DNA of 64,000 nucleotides from the NCBI RefSeq assembly GCF_964213995.1, contig NC_135823.1, forward strand, positions 868,001-932,000, written 5' to 3'. Each line of letters begins with the position of its first letter. The stretch's first letter is position 1. The notes under the pieces are model-generated. The model was not told where the DNA came from. It worked only from the letters and a program-made list of their open reading frames with translations, and did not search any database. The position numbers and the translations under genes are program-made. Shown piece after piece: positions 19,731 through 61,325 of this stretch. The stretch is from Mustelus asterias (lineage: Eukaryota).

Positions 19731-20384
19731 CATAAGGCATAACTGTTCATAGAAATCATAGACGCCCTACAGTACAGAGAAAGGCCATTCGGCCCATCGT
19801 GTCTGCAGCGACCACAAACCCACCCAGGCCCGACCCCCATATTTTACCCAAAAATCCCTCTAACCTACACATCTCAGGACACAAAGGGGCAATTTAATCA
19901 TAGCCAATCAACCTAACCCGCACATATTTGGAATGTGAGAGCAAACCGGAGCACCTGGAGGAAACCCATGCAGACACGAAGAGAATGTGCAAACTCCGCA
20001 CAGACAGTGACCTAAACCGGGAACTGAACCCAGGTCCCTGGAGCTCTGAAGCAGCAGTGCTAACCACTGTGCTACCGTGCCGTCCAACTGTTGATGATCA
20101 ATTCTGGCAGTGAAATATCAGTTGGGCAATCGAAACCAGGTGGGGTAGATATTCCTTGTTCCTCCATTGGCGATCTGGGATCCATTGAAATATTGTTTGA
20201 AAGTTGATGTATTGAAGGACCGTTTATGAATAAGTAAAACGCTGTTATAAGTGGGGGCCTTCTTTGCATTGGCACCCAGTGGGGCCGATTGAGATATTGG
20301 CCCTTTGGTGCAACAGGGCATCATTGGTGCACTGTGTCTCAAATTATTTACAGTTTAGCCGGAACAGGATTAGATTTAATCTCT

Positions 20385-22090
20385 AGAATCATAGAATCAT
20401 CCAGCGCAGCAGAAGCCCTTCGGCTCATCGAGTCCACACCGACAAATTAGAAGCACGTGAAATCCCTCCTAATCCCATCTGCCAGCACTTGGTCCGAAGA
20501 CCTGAATATTATAATGCGCCAAATGCTCATCCGGATACTGTTTAAATGATGTGAGGCAACCAGCCTCCACCACCCTCCCAGCAGGCGGATTCCAGACCTT
20601 CACCACCCTCTGGGTAACAAAATAATCTTTTCCTCACATCCCCCCTATAATTCCTGCCCGCCACCTTGAACCTATATCCTCTCGTGACTGACCCTTCAAC
20701 TAAGGGTAATAACTGCTTCGTATAAATTCTGTCCATGTACTTCATAATCGTGGACACCTCGATAAGGTGACCACCAACTCTTCTATTTTCCAACTAAAAC
20801 AACCCAACTCTCTCCAACATCACTTCATAATTTATATGTTCCATCCCAGGCAGCATCGTGGTGAATCTCCTCTGCACTCACTCCAGTGCAATCATATTCT
20901 TCCGATAATGTGGCGGCCAACGCTGCACACAGTTATCTAGCTGTGGCCTCTATGCAACCCTAACATGACCTCTCAACTTTGCAAGCAAGGCCTCGATTGA
21001 CAAAGGCAAGTGTCCCATATGCCCTTTTCACCTCCCTACTAATATGCCCTTCTACATTCAGAGATCTTTGGATGAACACGCCAAGGCCTCTTTTTTTCCA
21101 CAGAACTTCTTTGTGTCCGACTATGCAATGAATACTTTCTTGTCAAATTATTCCTTCAAAAGCGTGTCACTTCACACAATTCAGTGCTAACTTCCATCTG
21201 CCACATATTTGCCTATTTGACCATTTCGCCTATATGTCCTTGTAGCCCAAGACACCCCACCTCACTCATAGCCACATGTCGAATCCTTCTGTCCTTTGCA
21301 AACTAACTCATCCTACCCGCCGCATAGACATCAATGCCATTTATATAAATGAAGAATAATAGGGAGCACAACACAGAACCCTGTAGTACGGCACTGGACA
21401 CTGGCTTCTAGTCAATAAAGCAGCATTCTGTCGTCACCCGCTGTCTCCTACAACTGAACGAATTTTGAATCCACTTTATGAAATTACCCTGAATCCTACG
21501 TGAGTTTATCTTCTTTACAAGGATGCTATGTTGGACCGTGTCAAAGGCTTTGCTGAAATGCATATTAACTACATCGACTACACTAACTTCGTCTACACAC
21601 CTGGTCAGCCTCACAAAATGCAAATAAAATTTATTAGGCACGACCTCCCTCTGACAAAGCCATGCTGACTATCCCTGCGTAATGTTTGGCTCTGCAAGTG
21701 CCGATAGATGCTGTCCTTCAGAGGTTTCTCTAATTATTTCACTACTATGGACATGAGACTCACTGGTTTGCAGTTCCCTGGTTCATCTCTACAACTCTTC
21801 CTAGATAGCGGAACCACATTTGCTGCTCTCCAGTTGTCTTGCACCTCCCCCTTGGCCAGAGAAGAACTGAAAAATACGAGCTAGCGCCCATGAACTCTCA
21901 CCTCTTAACTCCCAGAACAGCCGAGGGCACAATTCATCTGGACCGGGATATTTATCCACTTTTAAGGTTGCCAACACCTCCAATAGCTTCCCCTTCCCTA
22001 TGTCAAGTTGTGCAAGAACCACACCGCCCCTCTCCCTTAATTCCTCATTCTCTTGGATGAAGAAGGATGTGAAGTATTCATTCAGCACCT
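20385..22090 (-). mobile_element. CR1-type LINE fragment (orthologue of 53560-55370)
   Basis: RT motifs DVVNMHFSKAFDTV and KYPGPDELCPRL. Confidence 0.85.
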
Positions 22091-22359
22091 GACCACCTGT
22101 TGGATTGCCAGGTTGGGTTGCTGTCTGTGTCCAGTTTGCATATTCTCCTCGTGTCTGCATGGGTTTCCTCTGCGTGCTCCGGTTTCCACCCTCCGTCCAA
22201 AGATGTGCGGGTTAGATGGTTGGCTATGCTAAATTGCCCCTTCGTGTAAGGGGTCTAGCTAGAGTAAATGCATGGGTTCATGGGGATAGGGCCTGGGGGT
22301 GTTGTGGTCGGCACAGACTAGATGGACCGAATGGCCTTCTACTGCACTGTAGGATTCTA

Positions 22360-22739
22360 TGTATGTTTTGGTGTGAGCCTATGTGTATCTCTCTGCATGT
22401 GTCGGTGAGTGACTGTGTGTGTGTGAGATTATGAGATTCTATTTCTGTGTATCTCTCTCGATGTGTCAGTGAGAGATGGTGTGTGCGTTGGTGGGGGTGT
22501 GGGGGTTGGGTGGGTAGGTGGGAAGGATGTATGTGTGTGTGCCTGAGAGAGAGAGAGTGAGATAGAGATTTAGGGACAGAGACTGTGTGTTTGAGGGAAA
22601 CGGTGTTTGAGTGAACGTTTACGTGACTCTGTCTGAGTCTGTGTGTGGGGAGGGAAATGTTTCTGTGTGTGTGTGTCTGTGCCTCTGTGGTTCTATGTCT
22701 ATGTTTGTCTGAGTCTGTGTGGGCAGTGAGGGAGAATGT

Positions 22740-22770
<31 letters not shown>

Positions 22771-22980
22771 AGTGGGTGGGTGGGTATGTCTCCTTTTGTA
22801 TATCTTGCGGTGAAAATTCCAGCGTTGGACTGCGGTGGGCACGAGGTTAAAGTCCAACAGATTTATTTGGAACCATGAGCTTCCGGAGCCTTGCTCCTTT
22901 ATCACGTGAGTCCTGGTACTTGTATGTGTAAGCGTTCCTGAGTCTGTGAGAGTGAGAGCGTTTCTGTGCGTTTGGTTCAG
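22360..22980. repeat. Degenerate TG/AG microsatellite region (paralogues at 37405-38980 and 52405-52975)
   Basis: (TG)n and (AG)n runs. Confidence 0.9.
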
Positions 22981-25413
22981 TGTTCGCTCTTGTGTTCTGG
23001 TGGATCTTCAATCGCTCAACAAACATCTAAAAATATAACAGTTTATCTGGCTCATTATTGAATTGTTCCTTATTGGATCATACTGTTTGCAAAGGCGTTG
23101 CCGAATTTACTACGCTCGATCGGTGAATACAATTCCAACAAGTGGCGGTCAATGATTCGGTGTTGAAGCAGCTCAGGAATGATGCAAAGTCATTGCACAG
23201 TGGCTGGTGTTTGGAATTTACTGTCTGGTTTGATGATAGAAGTTTTTGTTATTTAAAGCGACCTGAATATGTATAGAAACTGTTGTAACCTAAAAGATTG
23301 GTTGCTGGACAGTGGCATTTGAATAGACTGCGAGTTTTCTGGCCAGCACAGATATGATGGGATAATGGCCTCCTCCTCTGAGGTACCTGTGCCGTTGTTC
23401 AATGGTGCCAACATATTGATTGTGTGCGGCTGGTTGTGATTAATTTTAAGGGGTGTGCCGAAGCTCAAAGATCGATGGTGGCACAGTGGCACAGTGTTTA
23501 GCGCTGCTGCTTCACAGTGCCAGGGGCCGAAGTTCGATTCCTTGGGTGGCTGTGTGGAGTTTGCACGTTTTCACCATGTCCGCTTGGGTTTCCTCTTAGT
23601 GCTGCTGTTTCCTCCCACAGTCCAAAGAAGTGCCGGTTAGATGGATTAGCCGTGGAAGATGTATGGGGATGCAGGGATCGGTTGGGGTGAAGGCCTTTGT
23701 CAGATACACTATCAAAGAGTCGGTACAGACTTGATGGGCCGAATGGTAGATAATTCTGAAGGGGCTTGACACAATAGATGCTGAGACGCTGGTCAGGGAA
23801 TCTTGAGCATAACACATGTGGAGACATGATAATCAGATTGTCTGTTTAATAGTAATCAAGTTGATAGATTCATTATATTCTGAATAAATGTCAGCGTTTT
23901 TTGTGTTAGTCGAATTCCAAATCTGCTTCTCTGTCACTACATTATTTCAGTCAATTTCAGCCTATCGTGGCTGTGTTGTTAATATGTTCAAGCCTCAGAT
24001 AGATTCTTAATCAGTAAGGGAATCAAGAGTTATGGGAATAAGGTGGGAAAGTGGTGTTGACAACTGTCATATCAGAAGTCATGAACTCAGTGAATGGTGG
24101 AGCAGACTTGATGGGCTGAACGGCCGACTTCTCCTTCAATCTCTTATGGTCTGGAGATATTACAGTCTAACTCTTCTGTCGACACATTAAACCATGTATT
24201 TTGCAATTGAGATAGAGGCCAATGGAAACGGGTTAAACAAACACTTTCAAAGGGAATTGGGTAACTATTTGTTGGAAGGAACATTGCTGAGCATTATGAA
24301 GAAAGTTAAGGGGAAGACTGGACTAAATGAGATGCGATGGCCGAGTGGTCTTGCCGCTAGGATATTAATCCAGATACTCAGCTAATATTCTGGGGACCCG
24401 TGTTCGAATCCCGCAATGAAAATATATCTGGAATTAAGAATCTTTTCTTGACCATGAAACAATAGTCAAAAAAAGCCATCTGGTTCACTAATGTCCTTTA
24501 GGGAAAGAAATCTGCAATTCGTTCCTTGTCTGGCCTACATGCATCTCCAGAGCCACAGCAATATGGTTGACTCTCAACTGCCCTCTGAACAAGGACAACT
24601 AAGAATGCGCAAAGCCAGTGATGCCCCATGTCCCACGAATTAATCAAAAATGGATGGCTCTTTCAAAGATCCTGCACGGATTCACTGGGCCGAAAGGTCT
24701 CCTAAGCTGTATCATTCTATGGTTTTATGTAACGCCTTTGAGGTTCGGGGCAATCTTAAATATTTATGGGCGGAAGACAAGCTTCTGCACTTTAGGGATT
24801 CTATGATTCTCCATTATGATTCTATGATTTGTGAATGTTTCAGAGTGGACCTATAAACGCCACTCTGAATTTGGCAGCTTTGAAAAAGATTTCGAAAAAG
24901 CAGTCAGGTCGAAAATTCATTATATTCTGAATAAATGTAAGCGTTTTTTGTGTAAGTCGCATTCCAAACCTGCTTCTCTGTCACTACATTATTTCAGGCA
25001 ATTTCAGCCTATCGGCGCTGGGTAGTCAATATGTTCAAGCCTGAATGATGAATTATGGAGGAGGCCGAATTTCCTGAAAATCCCACAACTTCGTGGAAAT
25101 AAACATGGAGCCAATGAGATTGCCTTCAAACAACTGAATTTTCCCCGCGCATGCGCCAAAGATTTGGCTCCAGTGTTCACTGTAAATGATTGGACTTTGA
25201 GTTTGGGATATTCCACTGGAGCCGTGTTCAACCGCGGAAGAAACATTGAGCAATGCTGAGAGACTTTCCTGAGTTTCTCTGAAAATGTCCTGCTGATCGT
25301 CTTGCTCAAGTTCTTCACGGCGACTGTAAAATTTCTCTTTGCAAATGTCAACGCCCGAATATCAATTAATTATTCTATCTTAATAACGATACTTTGTCTT
25401 GATCTTGATCAAA

Positions 25414-32839: not shown

Positions 32840-32894
32840 ATGGCCAGCGAATTTCTATCTCTGATACTCATTTTCCAAGTCCTGTGGTTTCACT
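32840..32894 (+). CDS. Copy B leader (signal peptide) exon, MASEFLSLILIFQVLWFH
   Basis: Kozak aagATGg, hydrophobic 18-mer, phase-1 donor gtgagt at 32895. Confidence 0.88.
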
Positions 32895-33460: not shown

Positions 33461-33793
33461 TTACAGAATCCGAGACGTCCTTGTCGCAGATCTCTTTCAC
33501 AATAAAAGCCGAAGTTGGCCAGACGGTGGAATTGTCCTGCCGTGACACTTATGAAGTGGATATGGCGTATAACTATGCTTGGTGCAAACAGCGTCGAGGT
33601 GAAGCCCCGGTACTACTCAACACTATACCCTGTACTGGGGCCGACTGTAAGTTCATTTCTGAAAAAGGCTATCCGGGAAATGTATTAATTCTGAAAATTC
33701 GCAATGTCCAGACGAATGACTCGGGTTCCTACTACTGTATATATGTCGCTGGGTCTTCACGGCTCCGGAATGGACCCACACTCCTGGTTGGGG
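33461..33793 (+). CDS. Copy B Ig V-set exon with fused J-like G strand
   Basis: Acceptor gtctag (using the next AG would create TAA); canonical C, W, L-x-I and DSGSYYC; RNGPTLLVG then gtaaga; 333 nt, phase 1-1. Confidence 0.93.
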
Positions 33794-33883: not shown

Positions 33884-34213
33884 ACAGTTCCACCAACAAG
33901 ACAGCCGTGCTGATATTTGTCCCGCCGGGTGAGCTGGTTTTGAATGATGCTGTGCCCTTAGTGTGTTTGGTCAGTGGAGTTTCTTCCAACCAGATTGCTA
34001 TTTTATGGAATATTTCCGGCCTGATCACTGAGGGTTCAAGTGATCCAGGGATAATGGCGGAGGACGGGACCTACAGCATTAGAAGTCATGTCATAGTGTT
34101 GGGACAAGTCTGGAGAAGTGACGGTGTCTGTATTTGTATTGCTCAACTGGGGACTTCAGGAAAATATTGGACGAAGACGGTGTCTTTTCCCAAAACAGAA
34201 GCGACTGGGACAG
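33884..34213 (+). CDS. Copy B Ig C1-set exon
   Basis: VLIFVPP..PLVCLVSG..IAILW..EDGTYSIRSHVIV...WRSDGVCIC; 330 nt between tgtccag and gtgagg. Confidence 0.92.
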
Positions 34214-36247: not shown

Positions 36248-36360
36248 GATGGTGCAATCTGGAATATTCCATTGTCAGAATTGTCCTGCTGATTCGGTGT
36301 CTCGTCATGGTCCTTCTTTCCATTTGGATTTGGAAGAGCGGCAGATCAGGTGAGGAATAA
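36248..36360 (+). CDS. Copy B Cys + TM exon with two Arg; short tail (GWCNLEYSIVRIVLLIRCLVMVLLSIWIWKSGRS-GEE*)
   Basis: Acceptor tgtgtag; 102-nt exon ends at 36349; read-through reaches TAA at 36358-36360; AGA at 36277 and CGG at 36295. Confidence 0.85.
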
Positions 36361-36442
36361 TGTTCAGGAGGAATAATACCATTATTGTTCATTCAATGTG
36401 ATTTTCCTCGTGGCTTTTTATTGGTGATCACATGTTTGGGTT

Positions 36443-37831
36443 ACGAGCGAGCTATGGGAGCCCACAATGAAAAGTGAGTAACTGACCCATTTTTGACATT
36501 CATCACGGCAACTCTCTCCGTGTTTACTACTTTACAAAACCCAGATCGAAACCATCACTGATTCCAATGGTATTTGTAGAAATATTCCATTTGTCAAAAA
36601 TTAGCCTTCGTTTCTCAAATGTTTCATGCAACTGGGCCAGGATTTGTTGGAAGTAACACTTCTTTAATACTTTTTATTTCCTCATCCAGTTTTAGCTTGA
36701 GAGAAACGACACATAGAGGGGGGTGGAAATAGAAACAATCGGGTACGTTGCGTTGAAATGTTCGCTCTTCAATATCACTGAGCAGAATTATCATAGAATC
36801 CTTGCAGTGCAGAAGGAGGCCATTCAACCCATCGAAACTGCACCGAAAACAATGCCACCCAAGCCCAATCCCCGTAACCCAACAGACAGCTGGTTCCAAA
36901 TAAATGGAAAGGCGACATAAGATGGTGCAATGCAGTGCTTTGTAAACATTTTAATACTGCACAGAAAATTGGCGCTGTTTGATATAGGTGCGAGATGTCC
37001 AATGCTTGGGACGTCCCAAGGCCGCGGCCGCACCGTCGCACAGTGGTTAACACTGTTACCTCACAGCGCCAGGGAGCCGGGTTTAATTCTTGACTGGGGT
37101 CACTCTTCGTGCGGAATCTGTGCATTCTCCCCGTGTCTGCGTGAGTTTCCGCCAGGTGCTCCGGTTTGTCCCACAGTACAAAGGTTGTGCTGGTTACGTG
37201 CATTAGCCACGCTAAATTTTCTTTCAGTGTATCCGAACAGGCAGAGTGTGATGGCGAGGGGATTCTCACAATAACCTAATTGTAGTGTTAATGTGAGCCG
37301 ACTTTTCACTAATAAACAAAATTTAGAGTTTTGCTGGATAGTTCATGGGGCTACCAGATAGCAGCTCATGGTCTGAAGCATCTAAATATGATTCAAATAA
37401 AGATGTCTATGTATCTCTCTGTATGTGTAGGAGTGAGATTTTGTTTCTATGTGTTTGTATGTGTTTGTGAAAGAGGGAGAGAGAGAGATTCTCTATCTCT
37501 CTGTATGTATCCGTGTCACATGGTATGTGTGTGAGAGAGGGGAATTATATGTCGGTGTACCTGTTTCTGCGCGTCGCTTTGAGATTGTGCATGTGTGCTT
37601 CTGTATCTCTTTGCACGTGTCGATGTGAGATTGTGTAGGTGTCTGTGTGTGTGTGTTTGTGTGTGTGTATTTCTGTTGTCTGTTTATCTCTCTGCTTGTG
37701 TCGGTGTGAAATTATCTGTCTGTGTATCTCTTTGTACGTGCCGATGTGAGATTGTGTGTGTGTGTTTCTGAGAGACATGCTCTTGCTTGTTTATCTCTCT
37801 GCATATGTTGGTGTGAGATTTTGTATGTGTA

Positions 37832-37876
<45 letters not shown>

Positions 37877-40800
37877 CTCACTGTGTATCTCTCTGTTTGT
37901 GTCAGTGTGAGACTGCGTGTGAGTATATGTGCGTGTGATACTCTGTCTGTGTACATCTTTGCCTGTGCCAGTGTGGGATTGCATATGCATGTGCATGTGA
38001 GGGAGAGATTATCTGTCTGTGTATCTCTCTGTACGTGTAGGTATGAGATTGTGTCTCTGAATTTGTGTGTGGTGTGTGTATTTACGAGTTTGTCTGAGAG
38101 GGAGGGAAATACAGAGAGAGAGACTGTGTCTTTAAGGGGGACGGTTTTGTTTCGATGTGTTTGTGAACGTTTGCGTGACTGCATGTGTATCTTTGTTTGA
38201 GACTATGTGTATCTATGCGAGGGGCTGTGTGGTGTGTGTGTGTGTGTGTGTGTGTGAGTGTGTGTGTGTATGTGTGTGTGTGAGTGGGGGGGATGAGGGG
38301 GTTAGCTTATGAGGAGAGATTGAGTAGACTGGGCCTGTACTCATTGGAGTTTAGCAGGTTGAGGAGATCTTATCGAGACATATAAGATAATGAAGGGGCT
38401 AGACAGGGTAGACGCAGCGAGGTTATTTCCACTTACAGTGGAAACAAGAACGAGGGGGCATAGCCTCAGAATACGGGGGAGTCAATTTAGAACAGAGTTG
38501 AGGAGGAACTTTTTCTCCCAGAGGGTAGTGAATCTTTGGAATTCTCTGCCCACTCAAGCAGTAGAGGCTACCTCGTTAAATGTGTTTAAGTCACAGATAG
38601 ATAGATTTTTATTCATTCAGGGAATAAAGAGTTATGGGGAGCGGGCGGGTAAGTGGAACTGAACCCACTATCAGACCAGCCATGACCATATTGAATGGCG
38701 GAGCAAGCTTGAGTGGCAAGATGGTCTACTCCTGCTCCTATTTCTTATGTTCTTATGTTCTTAGGTATGTGTGTGTGTGTGTGTGTGTCTGCGTGTGTGC
38801 CTGTTTTTGTCTGTGTATGTGTGTCTAATTCTGTGTGGTGGAATTGAGAATGATTCTGAATGTGCGTGTGCGTCTGTGTGTGAGTGTTTGTGTCGCTGTG
38901 TTTGTCTCTGTACGTCTGTCTGAATCTGTGTGGTGGGAATGAGAATGATTCTGAATGTGTGTGCGTGTGTGTGTGTGCCTGTGATTCACTGATTCACTGA
39001 TTTCTGCAGTGTTCTGGTCGTTATTTAATCGCTCAACAAACATTTAGACATAGACGAATTTAGCTGGCTCATTACTTAATTGCTCCTTTTGGGGTGATAC
39101 CGTGTGCAGAGGTGCTGCCGGATTTACTATGTTAAATCCAGCAGCATCTTTCAACAATTTCAACAAGTCGCTGTCAACGATTACAGGTTGATGCAGGTTA
39201 TGAAAAAGGCAAAGTAATTGCACAATGGCTGGCGTTTGCAATGCACTGTTTAATTTGATGGTGGAAGTTTTAGTTATTTAAAAGGGACCTCAACATGCAT
39301 TTAAGTGCTATTAACTACGAGGTTACGGATTGCGTGATGGACAGTGGGATTAGAATAGGCAGCGAGCTTTCTGGCCGGCACAGACATGATGGGGGAATGG
39401 CCTCTTTCTATGCCATATCTGTACTCTTCTTCAATGGTGCCAAGACATTTGATTGTGTGTGCTTGGTTGCGATTACTTGTGAGGTATTTGCCACAACACA
39501 AAGATCGACGGTGGTACAGTGTTTAGCACTGCTGTGTCACAACGCCATGAACCTGAGTTCCATTCCTTCGGTGACTACATGTGTGGAGTTTCCACGTTCG
39601 CAACGTGTCTGCCTGGGTGTCCTCCCGGTGCAGCGGTTTGCTCCCACCGCCCAAGGATGTGTAGGTGATATGGTACTCATTCTCCCAATATGTGTAGGTT
39701 AAATAGATTAGCCATTGTATCTGTGTGGTGTTACGGGTGTAGGATGGGGAAGAATGCCTGGATGAGGTACTCTGTTAGAGAGTCGGTGTGGTCTCAATGG
39801 GCCGAATGACCTCATTCTGCACTGTAGGGATTCTATGATACCTGGAGCGGCTTGATAGGATAGATGCTGAGATGCTGGTCAGGGAATGTTGAACATGAAA
39901 TATGGGGAAACATGTTAATCGGATTGACTGTTTAACGGTAATCGAATTTCTGAATACATGTTAGCAACCCCTGTGTTAAGACGTGTTCCAAAGTCTTCTG
40001 TTCTGTGATTACGCTATCTCAGTCAATTTCCGCCTATCGGGACTGTGTCATTTAGGATTTTCAAGGTTGAGATTCTTAATCAGTAAGGGAATCAAGGGTG
40101 ATACAAATAAGGTGGGAAATTGAAGTTGACATTTGTCAAATCAGAACAATCATGAACTCATGGAATGGCGGGCAGACTGGATGGCCAGAATGATCTTCTT
40201 CTGCTCCTATTTCTTATGGTCTTGTGATATTAGGTCTAACTCTTCCATAGATACGTTAAGCCGCTAATTCTCCAAATGCAATTGAGGCCAATGGAAGCAG
40301 ATTGAACAGACACTCCCAAAAGGGAAACAGATAAGTACTTGTTGGAACGAGCATTGCTGAGAATCATGGGGAAATTTAAAGTGAAGCTTGGACGAAATGA
40401 GAAGCGATGGCCCAGTGGTATTGTCGCTCGAGTAACAATCTGATACTCAGCTAATGTTCTGGGGGCCTGGGTTCGAATTCTGCCGCGCCATGTGGTGGAA
40501 TTTGAATTCAATGAATTATATCTGGAATTAAGAATCTACTGGTGACCATGAAACCATTGTCGATTGTCGGAATAAAAAAAAATAATCTCGTTCACGAATA
40601 TCTTTGAAGGAAGAGTATCTGCCATCCACATCTCGTCTGGCCCACTTGTGATTCCAGAGTCACAAAAACGTATTTGACCCTGAACTGCCTTCTGTACAAG
40701 TTCAACTAGGGATGGGCAATAAATGCTGGCAGACAGCGACACCAATGTACCACGAATGAATAAGGAGGATAGCTCTTTCAAAATCCATCATGGTTTCAAT

Positions 40801-41032
40801 GGGCCGAATAGTCTCCTTCTAAACTGTATCATTCTAATATTTTATGTAACACCTGTGAGGTTCGGGATAACTTTAAATAGTTATGGGCCAAAAGCCTTCT
40901 TCTGCATGTAGGGATTTTATGATTTCCTATGATGACTATGATTTGTGAATGTTTCAGAGTGGACCTCTCTAAGCCTCCCTGGATTTGGCTGCTTTGTAAA
41001 AGAGATCGAAAGAGAAGGCGGGTCGGAAATGA
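36443..41032 (+). pseudogene. Decayed cytoplasmic exons of copy B (36443-36473, 36690-36742, ~37331-37386, 40958-41032)
   Basis: cyt1 acceptor lost; TAG at 36730; 5' half of the ITIM exon deleted; Tyr codon changed to TAA (40970) plus TAA at 40997; the ancestral TGA at 41030 aligns with the copy C stop. Confidence 0.8.
38290..38762 (+). mobile_element. Young CR1-type LINE 3' end
   Basis: MKGLDRVDAARLFPL..RRNFFSQRVVNLWNSLP with a tcttatgttcttatgttctt tail. Confidence 0.9.
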
Positions 41033-41936
41033 GAATCTGAATGATGATTTGTGGAGGAGGCAGGATTTCCCGAAAATCCGACAACCTCGTGGAAATAACA
41101 TGGAGCCCAGGATACTCCCTTCAAACGGCTAAACCTTCCCTCGTGCATCCGCCGAAAATTGGCTCCACTGTTCACTCTAAATGATTGCACTTTGTGTTTG
41201 GAATATTCCACTGGAATCGTGGTCATTACCTGTGGAAGAAGCATTGTGCAATTTGAAAGACATTCCTGAGAATCTCTGAAAATGTTCCAATCATTGTACA
41301 GCTCAAATTGTTCACGGGAACTATACTTCTTTGCAAATGTTGACGTGTGAATATCAATTCACGATTCTTTCTTTATAACGATGATTTGTCTTGATCTTAA
41401 TCAATGCTAAACTCATAATTAAATGTCATCTTTATGATTCTGCGATTTCTGTTGAGCTGTCATTATCAGCCCTGCATTCAAATGTGTGCCACTGCTTGAG
41501 GTGTGAGAGGCCTGATCATTTATAGAATTGGAACGCAATAAGAGCTACAGGTCGACAATGATGGATTATTCCTCTTTTACCAGCGCTTAAGGTTCCTATT
41601 CTCCCCCTCCCCCCTCCTGTATATGCGTGCAATAAGAGGCCACTCAGCCCCTCGGTGAGTTTATTTCTGCCCAGCTAGATCAATAACTTAACTCCATCTA
41701 CTCCGCTCGCATGCATACATTTCTATCCGTTTGCCAAGCGACAATCTATCCATTTCTGTGCTGACAGTTTCTATTTAGCCCCGGCCTCAGCAGTTATTTG
41801 AAGTTAAGAGTCACTGATTCCCCCTCTCTTTTGATTGACCAAGTGCGAACAAGTGACGTCTAAATGCACAGACTCCATTATCTCGCAAAACAATCTCCAA
41901 CCACGTCCTCCCGTCCTTGTTCTTGAGTCAGCCCAC

Positions 41937-50253: not shown

Positions 50254-50328
50254 TCATTTTTGAACAGCTTCCTTTAAAAAACTCTTTTCCAAAGCGGCCA
50301 AATCCAGCGAGGCGTAGACAGGTCCACT
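50254..50328 (-). CDS. Copy C terminal exon, SGPVYASLDLAALEKSFLKEAVQK*
   Basis: Acceptor tgtttcag conserved in all three copies; YxxL motif; stop position shared with copy B. Confidence 0.78.
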   Translation of the reverse strand, partial: SGPVYASLDLAALEKSFLKEAVQK

Positions 50329-52289
50329 CTGAAACATTCACAAAACATAGATTCGTCATAGACATTCATAGAATCCTTCTGTAGTGTAGGCCAGACCAGA
50401 TAAGAACAATGCAGAAGGAGGCCATTCAATCCATAAATATTGATAATTGTCCCGAACCCCATATGCGTTACATAAAGTCATAGAATGATACGGCTTAGAT
50501 GGAGGCTCTTCGGCCCATTGAATCAGTGTTGGATATTAAAAAGAGCTATCCATTTTATTATTCATTCGTGGGACATCTGCGTCGCTGGCATTGCCAATTC
50601 TTAGTTGTCCTTGTTCAGAAGTGAGCCGAAAGTCAACCGTTTTATTGTGGCTCTAGAATTACATTTACGCCAGACCAGATAAGAAGAGCAGATTTCCTTC
50701 ACGAAAGGACATTAGAGAATGAGATGTTTTTTTTCTGACAATGCTTTCATGGTCATCAGTAGATTCTTAATTTCAGAAATGTTTTCATTGAATACAAATT
50801 CCACAGTCTACCGTGGCGGGATTCGAACATCTGTCCTTTGAACAATAACTAAGTTTTTGTATTAAAAGTCTGGCGGTAAGACCGCTCGGCCATCACCTCC
50901 TATTTAGTCCAAACTTCACTTTAACTTTCTTCATAATGCTCAGCTATGCTCCTTCCACAAAATACTAATCAAATTCCCTTCTTGAAAGTGCTTGTTGAAT
51001 CCACTTCCATTGGCGTCTATCTCAATTGGAAAATTAATGACTCAATGTGTCTATGGAGGTGTTAGACCGTAACATCCGAAGACCATAAGACACTGAAGCA
51101 GAAATAGGTCATTCAGCCCACTGAGTCTGCTCAATGAATTCATGACTGCTCTGATGTGACAATTGACAAATCCACTTTCTGGCCTTATTCCCATCACCAT
51201 TGATTCCCATACTGACCAAGAATCTGTCTATCTCAGCCTTGAACGTACTTAACAAAATTAATACACATGGCTGACGTTGACTGAAATCACAGCGACAGTG
51301 AAGCAGAATTTGGAATACGCCTGACACAAAAACCACGAACATTCATTCAGAATGCTGGTGTGATGTGTCTATCAATTTGATTACTGTTCAACAACCAATT
51401 CGGTTACCATGATTCCCGATGTGTTCTGTTCAAGAGTCCCTGACCAGCACCTCAGCATCTATCTTCCCGAGCCCCTTCAGAATCATAGAATCCCGACATT
51501 GTGGAATGAGACCATCCGGCCCATCGAGTCTGCACCGACACTCTGACAGTGTATCTTCCAGGTATTCTCCCCCATCCTATCTCCGTAACCCCGCACGGCT
51601 AATCCATCGAATTTACACATCCTTGGACTGTGGGAGGAATCCGGAGCACCAGAGGAAACCCCGCACACACGGTGCAAACTCAATACAGACAGCCACCCAA
51701 GGAATCGAACTCGGGTCCCTGGTGCTCTGAAGCAACAGTGCTCACCACTGTGCCACCATCGATCTTTGCGTTTCGGCAAAACCCTCATCATTAATCACAA
51801 CCAATCACACACGAACATGTGTCTTGGCATCACGGAATCACAAGACAAATACGGCATGGAAACTCAATGATTGCGTATTCTTTTCTGATCCCACTGTCCG
51901 GTAACCAACCCGTAGCCTTGTACATGACGGTACTTTACGTACAGTTTTAGGTCTCTTTTTTAAAAATTAACATTTCCAGCATCAAACCAGACAGTGAATT
52001 CCAAACACCAGCCACAGCGCACTTACTTTGCGTCATTCCTGAGCTACTTCAACCCCTAATCGTTGACAACCAATTGTCCAGATTTTATTCACCGAATCGA
52101 ACGTAGCAAGTTCGGCAGCGCCTTTACAAACAGTATTATTCAATAAAGAACAATTCAATAACGAGCCAATAAATTGTCATATATTTAGACGTTTGTTGGG
52201 GCTTAAATATCGACCAGACGGCGAGAGGGAAAACTGAACCACAAAAATATTCTCACTTCTACCCTCACAGACTCAGGTACGCTTACGCA

Positions 52290-52407
52290 TGCAAACCAGG
52301 ACGCACCTGATGAAGCAGCAGCGCTCCGAAAGTTCGTGACTCCAAATATCCCTGTTGGACTTTAATCTGGTGCCAACCCAATCCAACTCCGACATCTCCA
52401 CCTCATG
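52290..52407 (+). mobile_element. Penelope-like terminal repeat relic with a hammerhead ribozyme-like core
   Basis: CTGATGA (52307-13), stem agcagcagcgctcc, GAAA (52328-31); shares ctgttggactttaa with the mini-insertions; the orthologue at 22810-22910 is more degraded. Confidence 0.55.
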
Positions 52408-52939
52408 ATATACAAACACAGAGACGCACACATACATATAAATATTTTCACTCCCACCAGCACAGACTCTGACACACTTACACAAAGAAACACACCGGCA
52501 CACACACACACACACGCACACACGCGCGCGCGCGCGCACAGGCACACATCCACAAACAGCCTCACGCAAAGATACAGACACAGAGTCAAAAGAAAAAATA
52601 CACATACAGTCACGCAAGTTTTCACGTGTCGACCATCTTCCTCAAGCACACAGCCTCTCTCTCTCCCTCTCTAAATTTCTCTCCCTCTCTCTCTCTCAGG
52701 CACACACGCGTGCACCCACCGTGCGTGCGCGCGCACACACACACATTCTCACACCGACAAATACAAAGAGATACTCAGATATTCTTTTTCACACAGAGGG
52801 ATGCATAGAGAATCTCTCAAATACTCAAACCAACACAAAGACAGACAGAGTGATTCACAGACAGAGAATCTCTCTCACACACACGCACATACACAATCCC
52901 ACACTGGCACATAACGAGCAATAGGCAGAGAATCACACA

Positions 52940-52974
<35 letters not shown>

Positions 52975-53313
52975 CTTCGCTAAATATTTACAACACAAAC
53001 CATCTTTTGAATTCTCAATAAAACTATGATGGCTTTGGACATCGTAATTCCAACAATTAATTCACCTCCAAGTGTTTGCGGATTGCAGAAAACTGGGATC
53101 TGAATGAGGGAGAACTCAATTCTTTGTGGAGATAAATAATTTGAAAACATGCCGAAAGCTGGCAAATTACAATGGAAACAGCTGGAAATCTGCAGAAAGG
53201 ACTGACTGAGATATTCAGACCAGAAAATAACTCAATCACTGTACGATCAGTTGGAAGATCTGCAGAGGTATACGATGTGATTACAGTGTGTGGATGAATG
53301 TGATTTGATTCAC

Positions 53314-53384
53314 ATTTAGATGCTTCAGATAGTGAGCTGCTCTCTGATAGCCGCGTGGAATATCCAGCATGGGATATATTACAC
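53314..53384 (-). CDS. Copy C cytoplasmic ITIM exon, GVIYPMLDIPRGYQRAAHYLKHLN
   Basis: Acceptor ttttggcattag; 71 nt converts phase 1 to phase 0 exactly as the flanking exons require; VxYxxL. The donor gtgaat is weak, so the 3' boundary is uncertain. Confidence 0.62.
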
Positions 53385-53559
53385 CTAATGCCAAAACCCA
53401 GCAATGTCCTGCATGTTATTAACATATTTGCAAAGCATTTACCTGAACTGAACATTCTTGAGTTCTCTTTCCGTAAGTATAGTCGACTCTGGAACAAAGT
53501 GGAAGATATCAATTGAAGAAAGCAGTTAGGGTGCAAATAGTATATATGAGATAGCTCCA

Positions 53560-55370
53560 GCTGGCACAAGTAGGGAAAATCCCAAGGATTCTATCAGTAT
53601 ATCAGTTGAAAGATGATAACCAGGGAACGTTTAGGGCCCATTAGGGACGAAAGGGCCAAACTTTGGGAAGAGCCAGAGGACATTGGTAGAGTGTTGAATG
53701 AATACTTCACATCTCTCTTCACCCAAGACAATTGGGATGATATAAAATTCAGGGAGAGGGACTGTGGAGGTTCTTGAGCAAATTGACATAGGGAAGAAAA
53801 AGGTATTCGAGATGTTGGCAGCCGTAAAAGTGGCTAAATCTCCAGGTCCAGATGAATTGTACCCGAGGCTGCTGTGGGTCGCAAGGGGAGAGATTGCAGG
53901 GGCTCTGGCGCAATTTTTTCATTCCTCTCTGGCGTGTTACCTGGCGACTGCAGAACAGCTAATCTGGTTTAAGAAATATTGTAAAGATAAACGAGTGAAC
54001 TCCTGACCAGTGAGTCCCACGTCAGTGGAACATCAGAAGGAGAGCATCTATCACCACTCGGAGATGCAAGCTTGATCAGGGGTAGTCAGCGTGGCTTCGT
54101 CAGAGGAGGTCATACCGAATAAATTTGACTGAAGTTTTCTAGGAGGTGACCATGTGTAGAGACATAGGTAGTGCAGTCGATGTAGTTTATATGGATTTCA
54201 GCAAAGTCTTTGACAAGGTTCCAACATGGGAAACTTGTAAAGAAGTTAAATTCACATAGGATTCAGGGTAATTTGATAAAGTGGATTCAATATCTGCTCG
54301 GTTGTAGAGGCAGAGAGTAATTTCAGAAGGTTCTTTCGTGACTGGAAGCCAGTGTCCAGCAGGGGAGCACAGAAATCTGTGTTGTGCCCCCTTTTGTTCA
54401 TCATTTATATAAATGACATTGATGTCTATGTGGCGCGTAGGATTAGTAATCTTGCGGATGACATAATGATTGGACGGGTGGTTCACAATGAGATGGAGTG
54501 TCTTGGGCTACAAAAATATATAGAACGAATGACGAGATGAGCAGATAAGTGGCAGATAGAATTTAAAACCTGAAGAGTGTGAGGCGATACACTTTGGGAG
54601 GAGTAACTTGACAAGGAAGGTTTCAATGAATGGTCGGACATTCGGAAGTTCTGTGGACAAAGGGACCTTGGCATGTTCGTTCACATATCTTTGAAAGCAA
54701 AAAGTATGTCAGTAGGGTGGAGAAAAAGGCAGATGGGATAATTACTTTTATCAGTCGAGACACAGATTCCAAAGGCAGGGGAATAATATTGAAGTTTTAT
54801 CGAACTTTGGTGAGGCCACAGCTAGAGTACAGTGTGCAGTTCTGGTCGCCACATTATCGGACGGATCTAAGTTCACTGGCGGGGGTACAGAGGAGATTCA
54901 CCAGGATGCTGCTTGAGATGGAAAAGTTAAGTTATGAAGAGAGTTTGGATAGGTTTGGGTTGTTTTCGTTGGAACAGAGAAGACTGAGGGGCGACCTGAT
55001 CGAGGCGTACAAGATTATGAGAGACATGGACAGAGTGGATAAGGAGCAGTATTCCCTTCTGTTGAATGGCCCGTCACGAGGGGAGAAAGGTTCAAGGTGA
55101 GGGCAAGGAGGTTTCGGGGGGATGTGAGGAAAAGCTATTTTACCCAGGGGGTGGTGACAGTATGGAATATTGTGTTAGGGAGGGTGGAAGAGGCGGCTTA
55201 ACTCACATCCTTTCAATAGTGTCTGGATGACCACTTGCCGCACCATAATATTCAGGGCTATGGGCCAAGTGCCAGCAGATGTGGTGAGATGGGAGTTGAG
55301 GTTTTTTAAACATGTCCCTGCAGACTCGATGGGCCAAATGACCTCGTCTGCATTTTATGATTCTATGATT
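53560..55370 (+). mobile_element. CR1-type LINE fragment
   Basis: KSPGPDELYPRLL, LCPLLFIIYIND..LADD and YRTLVRPQLEYSVQFWSP. Confidence 0.88.
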
Positions 55371-55914
55371 GTATAATTTAACTCTAATCCTGTTCTGGCT
55401 GAGCTATAATTAATTTGAGACACAGTGCACCAATGATGCCATGTTGCACCAACGGCTCCAATACAAGAATTGGTCCCACTCGGTGTCAATCAAAAGAGGG
55501 CTCCCATATATACCAGCGTTTTCCTGATACATAAACGGTTCTTCAATGCATCAACTGTCAAAAAGTACTTCAATGGATGCCAATTCGCCAATGGATGGAC
55601 AGAGAATATCTAACCTGCCTGGCGTTCATGACCCATCTGATATTTCAATGCAGCAATTGATAATCTACAATTATAACTTTATATGGGACGAACAGAAAAC
55701 GGATTATTGAAGAACAATTTGACGGCGGGAAGTACACATATCAATTTGATAATGTCTCCCATTTTGGCACTGGTTAGCACTGCTGCCTCACAGTGGCAGA
55801 AACCCGGTTCAATTCCAGGCTTGGGCGACTGTCTGTGCAGACTTTGTGTATTCTCTGTGTGCTTGCGTTGGTTTCCTCCGAGTGCTCCAGTTTTCTCCCA
55901 TGGTCCAGAGATGT

Positions 55915-56160
55915 GTAGGTTAGGTTGATTGGCGATGCTAAATTGCCCCTTAGTGCCCAAATATTTGCTGATTAGTTGGATTGCCCATGTTAAATTGCCC
56001 GTCAGTGTCAAAAGATGTGCAGATTAGATGGATTGGCCAAGCTACATTGCTCCTTAGTGTCTTAAGATGTGCAGGTTATTTGGATTGGATGCGCTAAATT
56101 ACCACTGAGTATTCAAAGATGTGCAGGTTGGCTGGATTGACCATGTTAATTCCCCCCTTA
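55915..56160. repeat. SINE-internal ~52-nt tandem repeat x ~5
   Basis: Repeating gctaaattgccccttagtgtc..aagatgtgcaggttagttggattgg. Confidence 0.75.
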
Positions 56161-56380
56161 GCGTCAGAGTGATAAGCAGTGCAAAACATCAGATGGGCAA
56201 TAGACGTCAGGCGAGGTGGATATTCCTTGTCCATTAATTGGGTTACGGGGTTAGGGTCTGGTTTGGATTGTTTTTAGTGCAGGTTCGATGGGCCGACTGG
56301 CCTCCTTCTGCACTGTAAGGATTCTATGATATTTCTGTTCAATTATGTTGAATCTGTGCCAACATTTGAATGCAACTTGC

Positions 56381-56433
56381 CCGTTTGTCGCTCTTTCCGC
56401 TCTCCTCTGTGCGTTGTCTCTCTCAAGCTCAAA
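56381..56433 (-). CDS. Copy C cytoplasmic exon 2, (S)LSLRETTHRGERKERQT
   Basis: 53 nt in all three copies; acceptor atccag; donor is GCAAGT here and GT in A and B. Confidence 0.68.
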
Positions 56434-56649
56434 CTGGATATGGAAATAATTAGAATGAAACAAATATTACACCCTGCAAATCCTGACCCAGAAGTCAGAC
56501 GTATTTGAAAGAAAGGATACTCAATTTTTAAACTTGGAACATTTCAAGATATGCCATTAGAATCAGTTGTCGTTCTCAACTGTGTTCAACACAATATTGC
56601 ATGCAGAGAGAGTTTTCGTGATAAATTTGGAAATGGCTCAGTTACTCAC

Positions 56650-56680
56650 CTTTCATTGCGGGCTCCCTTTGCTCGCTCTC
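56650..56680 (-). CDS. Copy C cytoplasmic exon 1, (G)ERAKGARNE
   Basis: 31 nt between ttgtttcag and gtgagt; same boundaries in copy A. Confidence 0.78.
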
Positions 56681-56769
56681 CTGAAACAAGACACTGTAAT
56701 CAGCAATAGAAAACTACAAGGAGCGTCACATTGGATGAACAATAATGACATTGTCCCTCCCTCAACATT

Positions 56770-57890
56770 GTGGGTGTTTTGCACCCATTATTGGTGTATT
56801 GTATGGGATGCACCACCACCTGCAACAAATGGGTCTTTTTCTGGTTGGCGATCAGTGACTAGTTGTGTGCCTCAGGGATCAGTGTTGGGACAGCAATTGT
56901 TTGGGACTGAGATGGATGATTTGGATTTGGGACCAATTGTGGTTTGTCAAAATTCGCAGATGACACGAAGATGAGTGGCAGAACAAAATGTGCAAAGAAA
57001 GTCTGCAAAGGGATAAAGACAGTCTAAGTGAGTGGGCAAGGGTCTGGCAGGTGGAGTTGGTAAATGTTGGTAAATGTGAGGTCATCCATTTTGGTAGGAA
57101 TAACAGCTAAATTGACTATTATTTAAACATTTACAAAAATGCAGCATGCTGCTGTGCAGAAGGAACTGGATAGCCTTTGCATGAGTCACATAAAGTTGGC
57201 TTGCAGGTGCAGCAGGTAATTAAGAAGACAAATTGAATTTTGTCCTTCATTGCTGGAGGGATGAAGTTTCCAAACAGCAAGGTTATGTTGCAGCTATGCA
57301 AAGCGCTGGTGAGGTCACACTGTGTAAAGTTACTGTGTAAAGTTTTGGTCTCTTGAGTTGAGAAAGGATATACTGGCACTGGAGGGGGCACAGAGGAGAT
57401 TCATTCGATTGATTCCGGAGTTGAGAGTGTTGGCTTATTAAGGGAGCCTGAGTAGACTGGGGCTATGCTTATTGGAATTCAGACGAATGAGGGGAGATCT
57501 TATAGAAACATATAAGATTATGATGGGAATAGAGAAGTTCGAAGCAGGGAAGTTGTTTGCTCTGGCAAGTGAAATTAGAAGTAGGTGGCATGGCCTCAGA
57601 ATGAGGGGAGCAGATTTAGCATTGAGTTGAGGAGAAACTTCTTCATCCAAAGGCTTGCGAATCTGTGGAATTCTATGCCCAGGTAAGCAGTTGCGGCTAC
57701 CTCACTGAATGTTTTAAGGCAAGGATAGATACATTTTCGAACAGCAAAGGAATTAAGGGTTACGGTGAGAGGGCGGATAAGTGGAGCTGAGTCCACCAAA
57801 ACGTCAGCCATGATCTTATTGAGTGGCGGAGCGGATTCGAAGGACCAGATGACCTACTCCTGCTCCTATTTCGTATGTTCTTATGTTCTT
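56770..57890 (+). mobile_element. CR1-type LINE inserted antisense in the TM-cyt1 intron of copy C
   Basis: VTSCVPQGSVLG; the tail abuts the donor; this intron is only 96 nt in copy A. Confidence 0.88.
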
Positions 57891-57899
57891 ATTCCTCAC

Positions 57900-58001
57900 C
57901 TGATCGGTCGCTCTTCCAAATCCAAATAGAATGAAGGACCCAGAGGAGAATCGGTATCACCAGGATAGTTATGACAATGGAATGTGCCAGATTACACCAT
58001 C
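57900..58001 (-). CDS. Copy C Cys + TM exon, GWCNLAHSIVITILVIPILLWVLHSIWIWKSDRS
   Basis: 102 nt between ctgtgtag and gtgagg; hydrophobic, no Arg/Lys within the span. Confidence 0.88.
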
Positions 58002-59931
58002 CTACACAGAGAAAAGACTTAGAAACTGCTGCTCGGTTAAGCCATTCTTTCTGAGTTTCTCGGCTGGAGAATTGAACCCAGGCACTATATCAACGCACCT
58101 TGACTTTCAATGGTGTTACCATCACTGAATCCCCACTGGCAAATTGCTTTGGGTTAACATTGTATATAAACTCATCTGGATTCGCCACTTGAACACAATG
58201 GCTAGCAGAGCAGGTCAGAGGCTGGGAAACCTACGGAGAGTAACTCACCTCCTGACTCCGCAAAGCCTGTCCATCATCTGCAAAGCACAAGTCAGAAGTG
58301 TGATGGGATATTCCCACTTGCCTGTTTGGGTGATGCTCCAACAACACTCAAAACGTTTGACACCACCCAGGCCAAAACAGCCCATTTGATTGGCACCACA
58401 TCCACTCCCTCTACCGCCCGACGGTCAGAATCAGCAGCGTTTACCATCAACTGGATGTACTGCAGCAATTCACCAAAGATCCCGAGACAGCATCTTCCAA
58501 AACCATGACACTTCCATCTCGAAGGACAAGGACAACAGATACCGTGATGCACCACCACCTTCAAGTTCCCCTCCAGGCCACTCACTATCCTGACTTGGAA
58601 GCATATCGCCGTTCCTTCGCAGTCGCCGGGTCAAGATTCTGGAATTTGCTCCCTAACTGCACTGTGGGTCAACGCACAGCACGTGGACTGTAGCGCTTTA
58701 AGATGACAGTTCACCACTTCTCAATGGCAACTAGGGACGGGCAATAAATGCTGGCGCAGCCAGCAACCCCCGTGCCCCACGAATGAATTCAGAACACAGT
58801 TATAAAGTGGTAAACTCAAACTCGGGAGTAAAATGAAAATAAACTACACATGGAATGGCGAGCATTTCGCTCGGGGAGCGGGGAGCGATTTTAAACAGTT
58901 GTTTGAAAACTGAATCATATAACTATACAGGCCGAAAGTGTCTCGCTGTGTCTTTGTAAGATCTATTGAAGTCGTGCTGCTCTACCTAATTTTTCCTCAC
59001 AGCCTCGCACATTTCTCACCATAGCGTCCATATGCAATTCCAGTTGCGAAATGCACTGTTATATCTGTTTCCATTGGTCTTTCAGACGTGTTCCAGATCA
59101 AAAGGTCAAACAGCATAAAATAGTCTAAAATCCAATTTGTGTGAAACTTGAGGTCCTGACTTTATTGTGATTCGATTCCAGGTATTATGAATTAAAAATA
59201 GACAGGTACCGCACGGAAGCTAAAGATTGTGAAGTGAGATTCTGGTAAATTGAAAACAAAAATGGGAAAAGCAAGGAATTTTAGAAAATAATTTCGAATC
59301 TTGTTTGTTTCTGATTTCAAAGCACATCCTGCATAGTACTGACCTCAGCTCAGTTTCAAAACACATTGTTTGAACAGGGCGGGGGAAGCAGATTCAATAA
59401 TAACTTCCAGCAGGGAAACCAGGTTCTGACTTGAAGAGAAAATGTGACTGGGCTACTGGCGGCATGGTGGCACAGTGGTCAGCATTGCTGCCAATCAGCG
59501 CAGGGGCCATGGTCCAATTTGTGGCTTCGGGTACTGTCTGTGCGGAGACTGCATGTTCTCCTCGAGTTTGCGTGTGTTTCCTCCAGGTGGTTCGATTTCC
59601 CCCACATTCTGAAAGACGTGCTCGTTAGGTGAATTTGCCATGCTAAATTGCCCCTTAGTGTCCAAAGATGTGTCAGTTACGTGAATTTGCCATGGTAAAT
59701 TTTATTTTAGTGCACACCAATAGGCGCCCCAATGTGGCAACTAGGGGATTTTCCCAGTAACTTCATTTCAACGTCAATGTAAGCATACTTCTGGCACTAA
59801 ATAAATAGAAAAATTAAGTAGATAAAATGGGACATTCCTTCTATTTCATTAACGGACTTCAGTTTATTTTACATTTCCCCAACTAATTACGAGTTGAATT
59901 CAAACCACCATTGCAGAGATGAGCAACTCAC

Positions 59932-60261: not shown

Positions 60262-60351
60262 CTGGACAGAGAATGGGACACAGTTAATGATTAATTTACA
60301 CACAATGGTAATGCGATGCACAACCTGAATAAATTTCATTTGCTCTCTTAC

Positions 60352-61270: not shown

Positions 61271-61325
61271 AGTGAAACTGCAGTACTTCGAAAATAAGTA
61301 TCAGAGATAAGGAGACTTTGGCCAT
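61271..61325 (-). CDS. Copy C leader exon, MAKVSLSLILIFEVLQFH
   Basis: aagATGg; phase-1 donor gtgagt. Confidence 0.88.

Follow-up and report, generated by a model that had tools for sequence, protein, structure and literature searches.

The window analysed here, 64,000 nucleotides of contig NC_135823.1 of Mustelus asterias, contains three copies of a receptor gene with a V-set and a C1-set domain, a transmembrane (TM) segment and a cytoplasmic tail. Copy A (14995..24918, forward strand) is a pseudogene that is damaged throughout, as a first-pass annotation had stated: leader, V acceptor, C1 exon (by a frameshift), TM donor and tail are all broken. Copy C (50254..61325, reverse strand) has an open ectodomain, a TM segment that is uncharged apart from one His, and a tail with the Tyr motif of the family; it has a GC donor after the tail exon cyt2 and an altered cyt3 acceptor (53443-53486). 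Among further copies in the genome, g1198m is fully open and carries the Tyr motif, which is also present in g775m and the g578m clade. The flanks of the cluster consist of repeats and GPCR-like fragments and offer no useful synteny marker.

Copy B lies on the forward strand. Its leader exon (32840..32894, 55 nt beginning with ATG), V exon (33461..33793, a V-set domain with a joined J-like end GPTLLV), second-domain exon (33884..34213, assigned to the C1-set by Pfam) and TM exon (36248..36349, donor intact) are all open. Together they form 820 nt in which start codon and reading frame are intact across ectodomain and TM segment and all seven splice junctions read GT/AG, in agreement with the earlier claim that this part bears no disabling change. 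DNA contigs spanning 35907-36329 and 36333-36567 match the letters of the window; their sample is possibly the assembly's own source, so that the agreement speaks only against assembly error. Four contig sets from one study, of unrecorded contig kind, contain no splice joints. A word-limited search with the V domain for an annotated model identical to copy B returned none, the best match reaching 60%.

The tail exons of copy B

Disabling changes in copy B are confined to the region after the TM exon, as the first-pass annotation had proposed, and six of them are specific to this copy. The inventory itself differs in several places. In the cyt1 remnant (36441..36473) the acceptor has indeed been lost: the alignment points to a B-specific deletion of 4 nt that leaves TT at 36441-42, and cryptic AGs follow at 36450-51 and 36459-60. 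The next exon, cyt2 (36690..36742), retains both splice sites and holds the reported TAG (36730-32) in the ancestral frame; if cyt1 is skipped, a TGA at 36698-36700 is read instead. The true cyt3 remnant (36886..36935, 50 nt) had been missed. Its donor has been lost to a 5-nt deletion, an in-frame TAA stands at 36918-20, an AATAAA lies inside it at 36899, and its polypyrimidine tract is replaced by a SINE tail, the loss of the tract being common to g962p and C3499p.

What had been described as an ITIM exon encoding VIYP is an intron stretch about 60 nt downstream of this third tail exon. Of eight aligned paralogs only copy C has a Tyr codon (TAT) here, the others having GAT or CAT, and an equivalent exon was found in none of the 17 annotated relatives in which it was looked for; we therefore reject it as an ITIM exon. 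Nor have its acceptor and VIYP been deleted from copy B, where the homologous, non-exonic stretch is kept at 36986..37004, AG included. The SINE lies to its right (about 37026..37322), inserted in the intron after cyt3 at the same site as in g962p. In copy C a long open frame crosses the VIYP region; we considered it as an alternative terminal exon and rejected it, since the relatives use cyt3 and then the last exon.

The last exon (40958..41032) encodes the only Tyr motif of the family, GPxYASL. Here the TAC>TAA change at 40970-72 exists as reported, though not at a second Tyr, and the other reported stop results from GAA>TAA at 40997-99. The final lesion on the earlier list, the change of a polyA signal from AATAAA to GCTAAA, is present as a sequence (41406-11), but its standing as a genuine lesion is unsupported: only three of nine aligned copies have AATAAA at this position, and an ATTAAA follows 12 nt downstream at 41418 in copy B, both elements (41406..41423) being candidates rather than demonstrated signals.

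How would such a tail be expressed? Five of five plausible splice models stop before the Tyr motif, and further cryptic acceptors exist. The predicted product has 276-294 residues with a tail of about 8-26. Splicing from TM to cyt2 to the last exon places the stop 42 nt before the last junction, or 10 nt if a cryptic cyt1 acceptor is used; by the 50-55 nt rule both transcripts are predicted to escape NMD. With cyt3 spliced in, the distance becomes 92 nt and the transcript NMD-prone.

Arginines in the transmembrane segment

The TM segment of copy B carries two arginines. Arg1 (36277..36279) is encoded by AGA, where most non-Arg paralogs have ATA, and stands at about TM position 3-4. It is common to copy B, g962p, C3499p and g1145p, has the same register as the Arg of other sharks, and occupies a slot that ray and sturgeon relatives use as well. 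Arg2 (36295..36297) is encoded by CGG, where most non-Arg paralogs have CCG, lies in mid-helix, and is common only to copy B, g962p and C3499p. The second, mid-helix Arg lowers the hydrophobicity of the segment: the best 19-mer of copy B has a KD value of 2.5, versus 3.1-3.5 in g578m and g1198m, with copy C and g775m also at about 2.5. In a TM tree drawn without ray proteins, copy B groups with local uncharged, Tyr-bearing paralogs.

Among 47 TM-bearing proteins of the family the Tyr motif is kept in none of seven with an N-terminal TM Arg versus 33 of 40 without Arg, in a table whose rows are non-independent, two of them manually reclassified, and which omits 13 of 60 family proteins that are partial or have no TM. 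Two sturgeon proteins (P0068, P0069) repeat the pattern of Arg and motif loss. The ectodomain tree requires a separate change for every one of the seven Arg-labelled rows, as in paired receptors; an AU test (p=0.061) does not reject a single origin for the Arg group of copy B and the older Arg lineage of sharks. A search of genome G000 with a catshark Arg-bearing TM gave no match, which is uninformative about absence.

The ITIM consensus is S/I/V/L-x-Y-x-x-I/V/L. In rays, Heptranchias and chondrosteans the motif has the canonical form V/I-x-Y-x-x-L; in galeomorph sharks and in the Mustelus asterias genome it has Pro at -2, so that calling the ancestor inhibitory draws on orthology. Candidate adaptors are encoded in the genome: an FcRγ-like gene (L062) and a CD3ζ-like gene (L061) are each represented by a TM exon that has the acidic residue. 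The arginines, their pairing with motif loss and the adaptor genes are lines of support that the first-pass annotation had not given.

Constraint, history and competing explanations

Over the branch leading to copy B, 3.7-8.6 ectodomain lesions would be expected if the whole gene were neutral, and none is observed; 13 of the 14 damaged paralogs have a lesion in ectodomain or TM, copy B being the only one without. Exon-wise dN/dS, the check proposed for this asymmetry, gives a partial answer. Branch values were derived from pairwise NG86-type distances by triplet decomposition with a fixed ts/tv of 3, not from a maximum-likelihood codon model. Of three triplets, two put the ectodomain at 0.51 (95% CI 0.30-0.88) and 0.56 (0.36-0.94), and the third, which uses the closest sister, puts it at 0.70 (CI 0.38-1.54); the V exon alone gives 0.39-0.50 and the tail 0.84-1.14. 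In round figures the ectodomain lies at 0.5-0.7 and the tail at 0.8-1.1. Dead copies also lie at 0.7-0.8 (A 0.73, g962p 0.81), so that dN/dS alone neither separates copy B from them nor dates the constraint. Copy B and g962p differ at 4 of 102 nt of the TM exon, whereas the introns on either side of it differ at 42 of 309 (Fisher p=0.006).

Copy B matches an adaptor-coupled activating receptor in its TM Arg, in predicted products that lack an ITIM, and in an open ectodomain shared in type with inhibitory-type paralogs. Judged from the sequence, we consider it fairly probable that copy B encodes an activating receptor with a short tail, derived from an inhibitory-type ancestor and predicted to associate with a dimer of FcRγ or CD3ζ; within a paired VJ-C1 receptor family it would be an activating member coupled to FcRγ/CD3ζ. 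The direction of the conversion proposed earlier gains support from the arginines, their pairing with motif loss and the adaptor genes; the tail model and the idea of six conversion steps do not stand. A first step would have been the TM Ile>Arg change common to copy B, g962p, C3499p and g1145p. A second step, common to copy B, g962p and C3499p, may have brought the second Arg, the SINE insertion, a weakened cyt1 acceptor and the deletion that removed the cyt3 polypyrimidine tract, with skipping of cyt3 putting the Tyr exon out of frame. The third would be B-specific decay of the unused tail, under purifying selection on the ectodomain, as the sister copies died. Arginines and cyt3 damage are placed first because the dead sister copies have them too. 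The shared cyt3 damage would by itself put the Tyr exon out of frame, so that the later stops probably reflect neutral decay, and those in the last exon are probably after-effects of earlier changes. The conversion does not require that a new polyA site arose close to the TM exon.

A different history might lead to the same receptor. An existing cassette of Arg-TM and tail could have been recombined onto the ectodomain of another paralog, as the accessible parts of PMC2213150 and PMC3210942 report for KIR and Ly49. Identity between copy B and g962p is 96% in the TM exon and 86-89% in introns 4-5, falling to 79-80% across introns 1-2 and to 78-79% in the final intron; the V exon of copy B is 87% identical to copy C and 84% to g962p, and exon trees disagree. 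However, intron 3 too is nearer to g962p (82-83% versus 73-81% for others), the V tree places copy B with g962p (80%), and the deletion and SINE common to the sisters reach past cyt3. We regard such a swap as possible but rather unlikely. It would alter the history and leave the predicted function in place, and is compatible with our preferred reading.

It is less probable still that copy B was formerly of the activating type but has since fallen silent or died recently, with a tail that decayed earlier and an ectodomain that has simply escaped lesions so far. All three other Arg-bearing copies of the genome (g962p, C3499p, g1145p) are dead and their subclade is mostly pseudogenic, the word-limited V-domain search offered no copy B model, and the accessible part of PMC2213150 portrays the activating forms of KIR and Ly49 as short-lived. 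A dead time of 0.03 substitutions/site would leave the ectodomain without a lesion with a probability of 0.10-0.23. Against this stand the intact start codon, frame and seven junctions, and six tail lesions, whose accumulation points to a long neutral period in which the ectodomain nevertheless remained open.

We find it improbable that copy B is a non-signalling, tail-less decoy, retained or shed, which competes with inhibitory paralogs and whose arginines recruit no adaptor. Two Arg per helix could hinder insertion, and relatives have annotated isoforms that skip the TM (P0005, P0006, P0022); yet Arg1 keeps the register of other sharks and coincides with motif loss in seven of seven cases, and the TM exon has diverged less than the introns beside it. 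Chance clustering of lesions in a gene decaying neutrally as a whole is very improbable, for even with about 14 damaged copies to choose among and an exon-rich tail that makes up 32-38% of the disabling target, the probability that all six lesions fall in the tail is 0.001-0.003 uncorrected and 0.02-0.04 after multiplication by 14 copies, and the coincidence with the TM Arg and the V dN/dS also argue against it.

Relation to known receptor families

Switching from inhibition to activation is well documented in mammalian KIR and Ly49, and human natural-killer-cell receptors are known for it; little has been described of innate paired receptors in cartilaginous fish. In the accessible part of Abi-Rached and Parham 2005 (PMC2213150), activating KIR (2DS/3DS) and Ly49 derive from inhibitory homologues by gain of a basic TM residue and loss of the ITIM, with recurrent origin, spread by recombination and short-lived activating copies, and the charged residue comes first in rat Ly49s3; copy B resembles them in these respects. 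It differs in its unrelated V-C1 ectodomain, in an Arg near the outer end of the TM (the FcRγ/ζ type) instead of a central Lys (DAP12), and in probably having lost its motif to exon or splice damage, not to a stop within the ITIM. The KIR analysis could not order the steps, both changes falling on one branch; in the shark lineage (g1145p, g962p/C3499p, B) dead sister copies allow an order.

FcαRI and the PIR proteins have domains of a type other than V-C1. The parts available of PMC1440944 place the Arg of FcRγ-coupled receptors in the N-terminal TM segment, at position 3 in FcαRI, and with PMC3210942 on PIR-A/PIR-B they describe a short ITIM-less tail and inhibitory partners with similar ectodomains, all as seen or predicted for copy B. 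These are mammalian leukocyte-receptor-complex proteins, and copy B has a second, mid-helix Arg. UrIg and UrIg2, elasmobranch molecules with a non-rearranging VJ exon followed by C1 domains, are similar in layout; UrIg2 has nine C1 domains, and the account in PMC12227049, in its accessible part, includes no paired TM/tail system. UrIg sits in the MHC class III region according to the portion available of PMC10751288.

PRARP combines V, C1 and TM with a juxtamembrane Cys and an ITIM/ITSM-like tail, and is not known to have activating members or large clusters. The shark family likewise has a joined VJ exon, C1, TM and Tyr motif. PRARP and VJ-C1 non-rearranging genes are named in the accessible parts of PMC10751288 and PMC11599192, where PRARP is cited as MHC-linked; the shark cluster lies on C23, whereas the MHC-I matches, 140 of 140, are located on C8. 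A search for MHC-II found no match anywhere in the genome.

SIRP (SIRPα/SIRPβ) and teleost NITRs also have a J-like V domain and paired inhibitory and activating members, with ectodomains of V-C1-C1 and V-I(C2), respectively. Unlike SIRP, the shark family has a single C1 exon before the TM, both in our gene models and in annotated relatives, and one Tyr motif; unlike NITRs, its second domain belongs to the Pfam C1-set, not to I/C2. These comparisons with PRARP, SIRP and NITR cover domain layout and, for PRARP, location. A PDB search listed only antibody chains among its best 60 matches. Our literature search gave no account of the family or of its activating members; its scope excluded the primary papers on PRARP and on the primordial immune complex and most subscription papers and supplements, so the novelty of the family is not established.

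The cluster represents an antigen-receptor-like V-C1 family with members of both signs across sharks, rays and sturgeons. Only tentatively, we would combine these observations into an undescribed, non-rearranging, antigen-receptor-like VJ-C1 paired family whose activating members are FcRγ/ζ-coupled. Arg gain in the same slot and ITIM loss would have recurred in an old galeomorph N-x-x-R lineage, separately in rays, sawshark and sturgeon, and in the B lineage, copy B being the sole survivor of the youngest round, with a truncated mRNA that the loss of cyt3 allowed to escape NMD. The predicted assembly of copy B with shark FcRγ/CD3ζ lends itself to direct testing. As to resemblance by other measures, a comparison by features gives SIRPα clusters a score of 0.95, and automatic annotation has named some of the sturgeon relatives 'SIRP-beta-like'.

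Architecture of the receptor family and its tail

The window holds one gene in three copies, A and B on the forward strand and C on the reverse. Each consists of a leader, a V-set exon with a joined J-like strand at its end, a C1-set exon, a transmembrane (TM) exon and four tail exons. With the V domain of copy B as query, 34 matches were obtained in the 3.68-Gb genome, the majority clustered at 0.15–1.71 Mb of the window's own contig, C23. Searching at the DNA level with the TM region brought in two further loci, and 27 loci were retrieved and inspected. Relatives include 60 proteins from sharks, rays and a paddlefish as well as 21 from sturgeons and paddlefish, all with automatic, uninformative names.

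As defined from annotated relatives, including models that match exons of this genome exactly, the tail comprises cyt1 (31 nt), cyt2 (53 nt), cyt3 (50 nt) and a last exon with one G-P-x-Y-A-S-L motif only. This Tyr motif is ITIM-shaped (V/I-x-Y-x-x-L) and canonical in rays, Heptranchias and chondrosteans, whereas galeomorph sharks have Pro at −2, so that an inhibitory function of motif-bearing members is something we infer. In the clade of g578m, g259m, g147m, g360m, g1304p and g1711m, CAA stands at the usual cyt2 acceptor site; the annotated models P0024 and P0059 seem to use an in-frame AG a few codons downstream of it.

The first-pass annotation had described a deleted ITIM exon acceptor and VIYP motif in copy B, and had taken 40970 for a second Tyr. 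The VIYP position belongs to the intron that follows cyt3, some 60 nt from its start, has TAT in one of eight aligned copies (copy C), and is retained in B at 36986–37004, with a SINE inserted directly after. The deletion was thus misdescribed, and 40970 is the sole Tyr motif of the family.

An open ectodomain and a damaged tail

In copy B, 820 nt of leader, V, C1 and TM are open with canonical junctions, as had been claimed. All six B-specific lesions lie in the tail: deletion of the cyt1 acceptor, TAG at 36730, two changes to the cyt3 remnant (36886–36935), namely TAA at 36918 and deletion of the donor, then TAA at 40970 in the Tyr motif, and TAA at 40997 in the last exon. The earlier list of post-TM lesions needs correcting in its entries: besides the misdescribed deletion, the polyA change is weak, as AATAAA occurs at that site in 3/9 copies and B has ATTAAA at 41418.

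An automatic count over 17 loci found three free of lesions (C, g1198m, g775m); among the 14 damaged loci, 13 carry an ectodomain or TM lesion and B alone has none. Under a model with substitution and indel rates derived from introns, the tail makes up 32–38% of the disabling target, six of six lesions fall there with a probability of 0.001–0.003 (0.02–0.04 after ×14), and 3.7–8.6 ectodomain lesions are expected along B's branch. The asymmetry is real. Exon-wise dN/dS, the check proposed earlier, gave triplet values of 0.51, 0.56 and 0.70 for the ectodomain (the CI of 0.70 includes 1) and 0.84–1.14 for the tail; but the dead copies A and g962p reach 0.73 and 0.81, which makes the dN/dS result supportive without being decisive.

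An AATAAA at 36899–36904 within the cyt3 remnant, which the paralog g962p has and C3499p lacks, may be a novel proximal polyA signal or may have arisen by chance. Copy A has its last exon split by an insertion of ~120 nt (24916–25041) resembling its own upstream intron near 23880–23990. Copy C (56380 and 53443–53490, reverse strand) looks like the intact template, but its tail may be impaired as well: cyt2 is followed by a GC donor, the cyt3 acceptor reads CAGAG with a 6-nt deletion, so that splicing at the first CAG would change the frame, and the TM contains a His. A SINE-related unit forms 52-nt tandem arrays at 11445–11937 and 55903–56165.

Transmembrane arginines and a proposed order of events

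The TM of copy B includes ...Y-S-I-V-R-I-V-L-L-I-R-C-L-V-M..., with AGA (36277–36279, Arg1) and CGG (36295–36297, Arg2) in place of the ATA and CCG seen in most paralogs. Arg1 is common to B, g962p, C3499p and g1145p, and Arg2 to the first three only; all three sisters are pseudogenes, and C3499p, 97% identical to g962p, is a paralog or haplotig. The dead g1145p (L063–L064, ~1.146 Mb) combines Arg1 with a motif Tyr>Cys, no cyt3 was found at its locus, and it possibly represents an earlier stage of B's lineage.

An N-terminal TM Arg occurs in 7/47 TM-bearing proteins, labelled Heterodontus, Scyliorhinus, Hemiscyllium, Chiloscyllium, Pristiophorus, Hypanus and Mobula. The Tyr motif is kept in none of these seven versus 33 of the 40 without Arg (Fisher p=5e-5; 47 of the 60 proteins, two rows reclassified by eye, kin and isoforms among the rows). 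Their tails are truncated, one stopping at I-L-Y-A, and in another the Tyr is replaced by His. The combination of Arg with motif loss recurs in two sturgeon proteins. Together with B's own arginines, this pairing in relatives supports the proposed conversion of B from inhibitory to activating, which is likely, if with a corrected tail. The genome has FcRγ-like and CD3ζ-like TM exons, and an Arg in the N-terminal TM segment is described for receptors assembling with FcRγ (PMC1440944).

Were the arginines inherited or gained anew? The ectodomain tree needs seven changes for the seven Arg-labelled rows, as would be expected from repeated origin or from ectodomain homogenisation. The short tree of TM and tail unites four galeomorph N-x-x-R proteins (81/87) and joins B, g962p and g1145p to local paralogs without a charge (96/82). 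By an AU test on 61 columns, the trait's own included, a common origin is not rejected (p=0.061). B's alignable flanking introns, and a TM 82–86% identical to those of A, C and g1198m, favour, without proving, an independent gain in B's lineage.

Arg1 would have arisen first. Arg2, the SINE insertion, a weakened cyt1 acceptor and a deletion swapping the cyt3 polypyrimidine tract for SINE tail would have followed; these are all common to B and g962p/C3499p, which also lost the cyt3 donor through a different change. Since cyt3 starts in phase 1 and ends in phase 0, a transcript without it has the Tyr exon out of frame: the motif of g962p, still intact in sequence, is probably not usable, and the stops in B's last exon are likely after-effects. 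Five splice models predict products of 276–294 aa with tails of ~8–26 residues; those lacking cyt3 stop 42 or 10 nt upstream of the last junction and are predicted to escape NMD, while that with cyt3 stops 92 nt upstream. B is also a mosaic relative to g962p (96% identity in the TM, 86–89% in introns 4–5, ~79% in introns 1–2 and the last intron); a cassette swap may accordingly have played a part in this history.

Comparison with known systems

Copy B would work like the activating KIR, Ly49 and PIR-A receptors as described (PMC2213150, PMC3210942). It is a member of none of these families. The evolutionary pattern is a known one, and B would be a new instance of it in a V-C1 family for which we could not find a description in the literature searched. 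Its single C1 sets it apart from SIRP, and the C1-set nature of its second domain from NITR. PRARP is alike in architecture, but B's cluster is not MHC-linked in this genome. On contig C8, 140 exon matches make up a very large array of MHC class I at 21–43 Mb, and weak V-domain matches lie nearby at 20.5 and 50.7 Mb.

Within the cluster, the distant V-C1 gene L040 (~509.2–509.5 kb, ~30% identity, canonical F-G-x-G J motif) is a better candidate than B's family for PRARP or for an antigen-receptor precursor. Among the relatives, P0028 and P0032, both labelled Hemiscyllium, have near-identical ectodomains and opposite TM/tail types, a textbook homogenised receptor pair.
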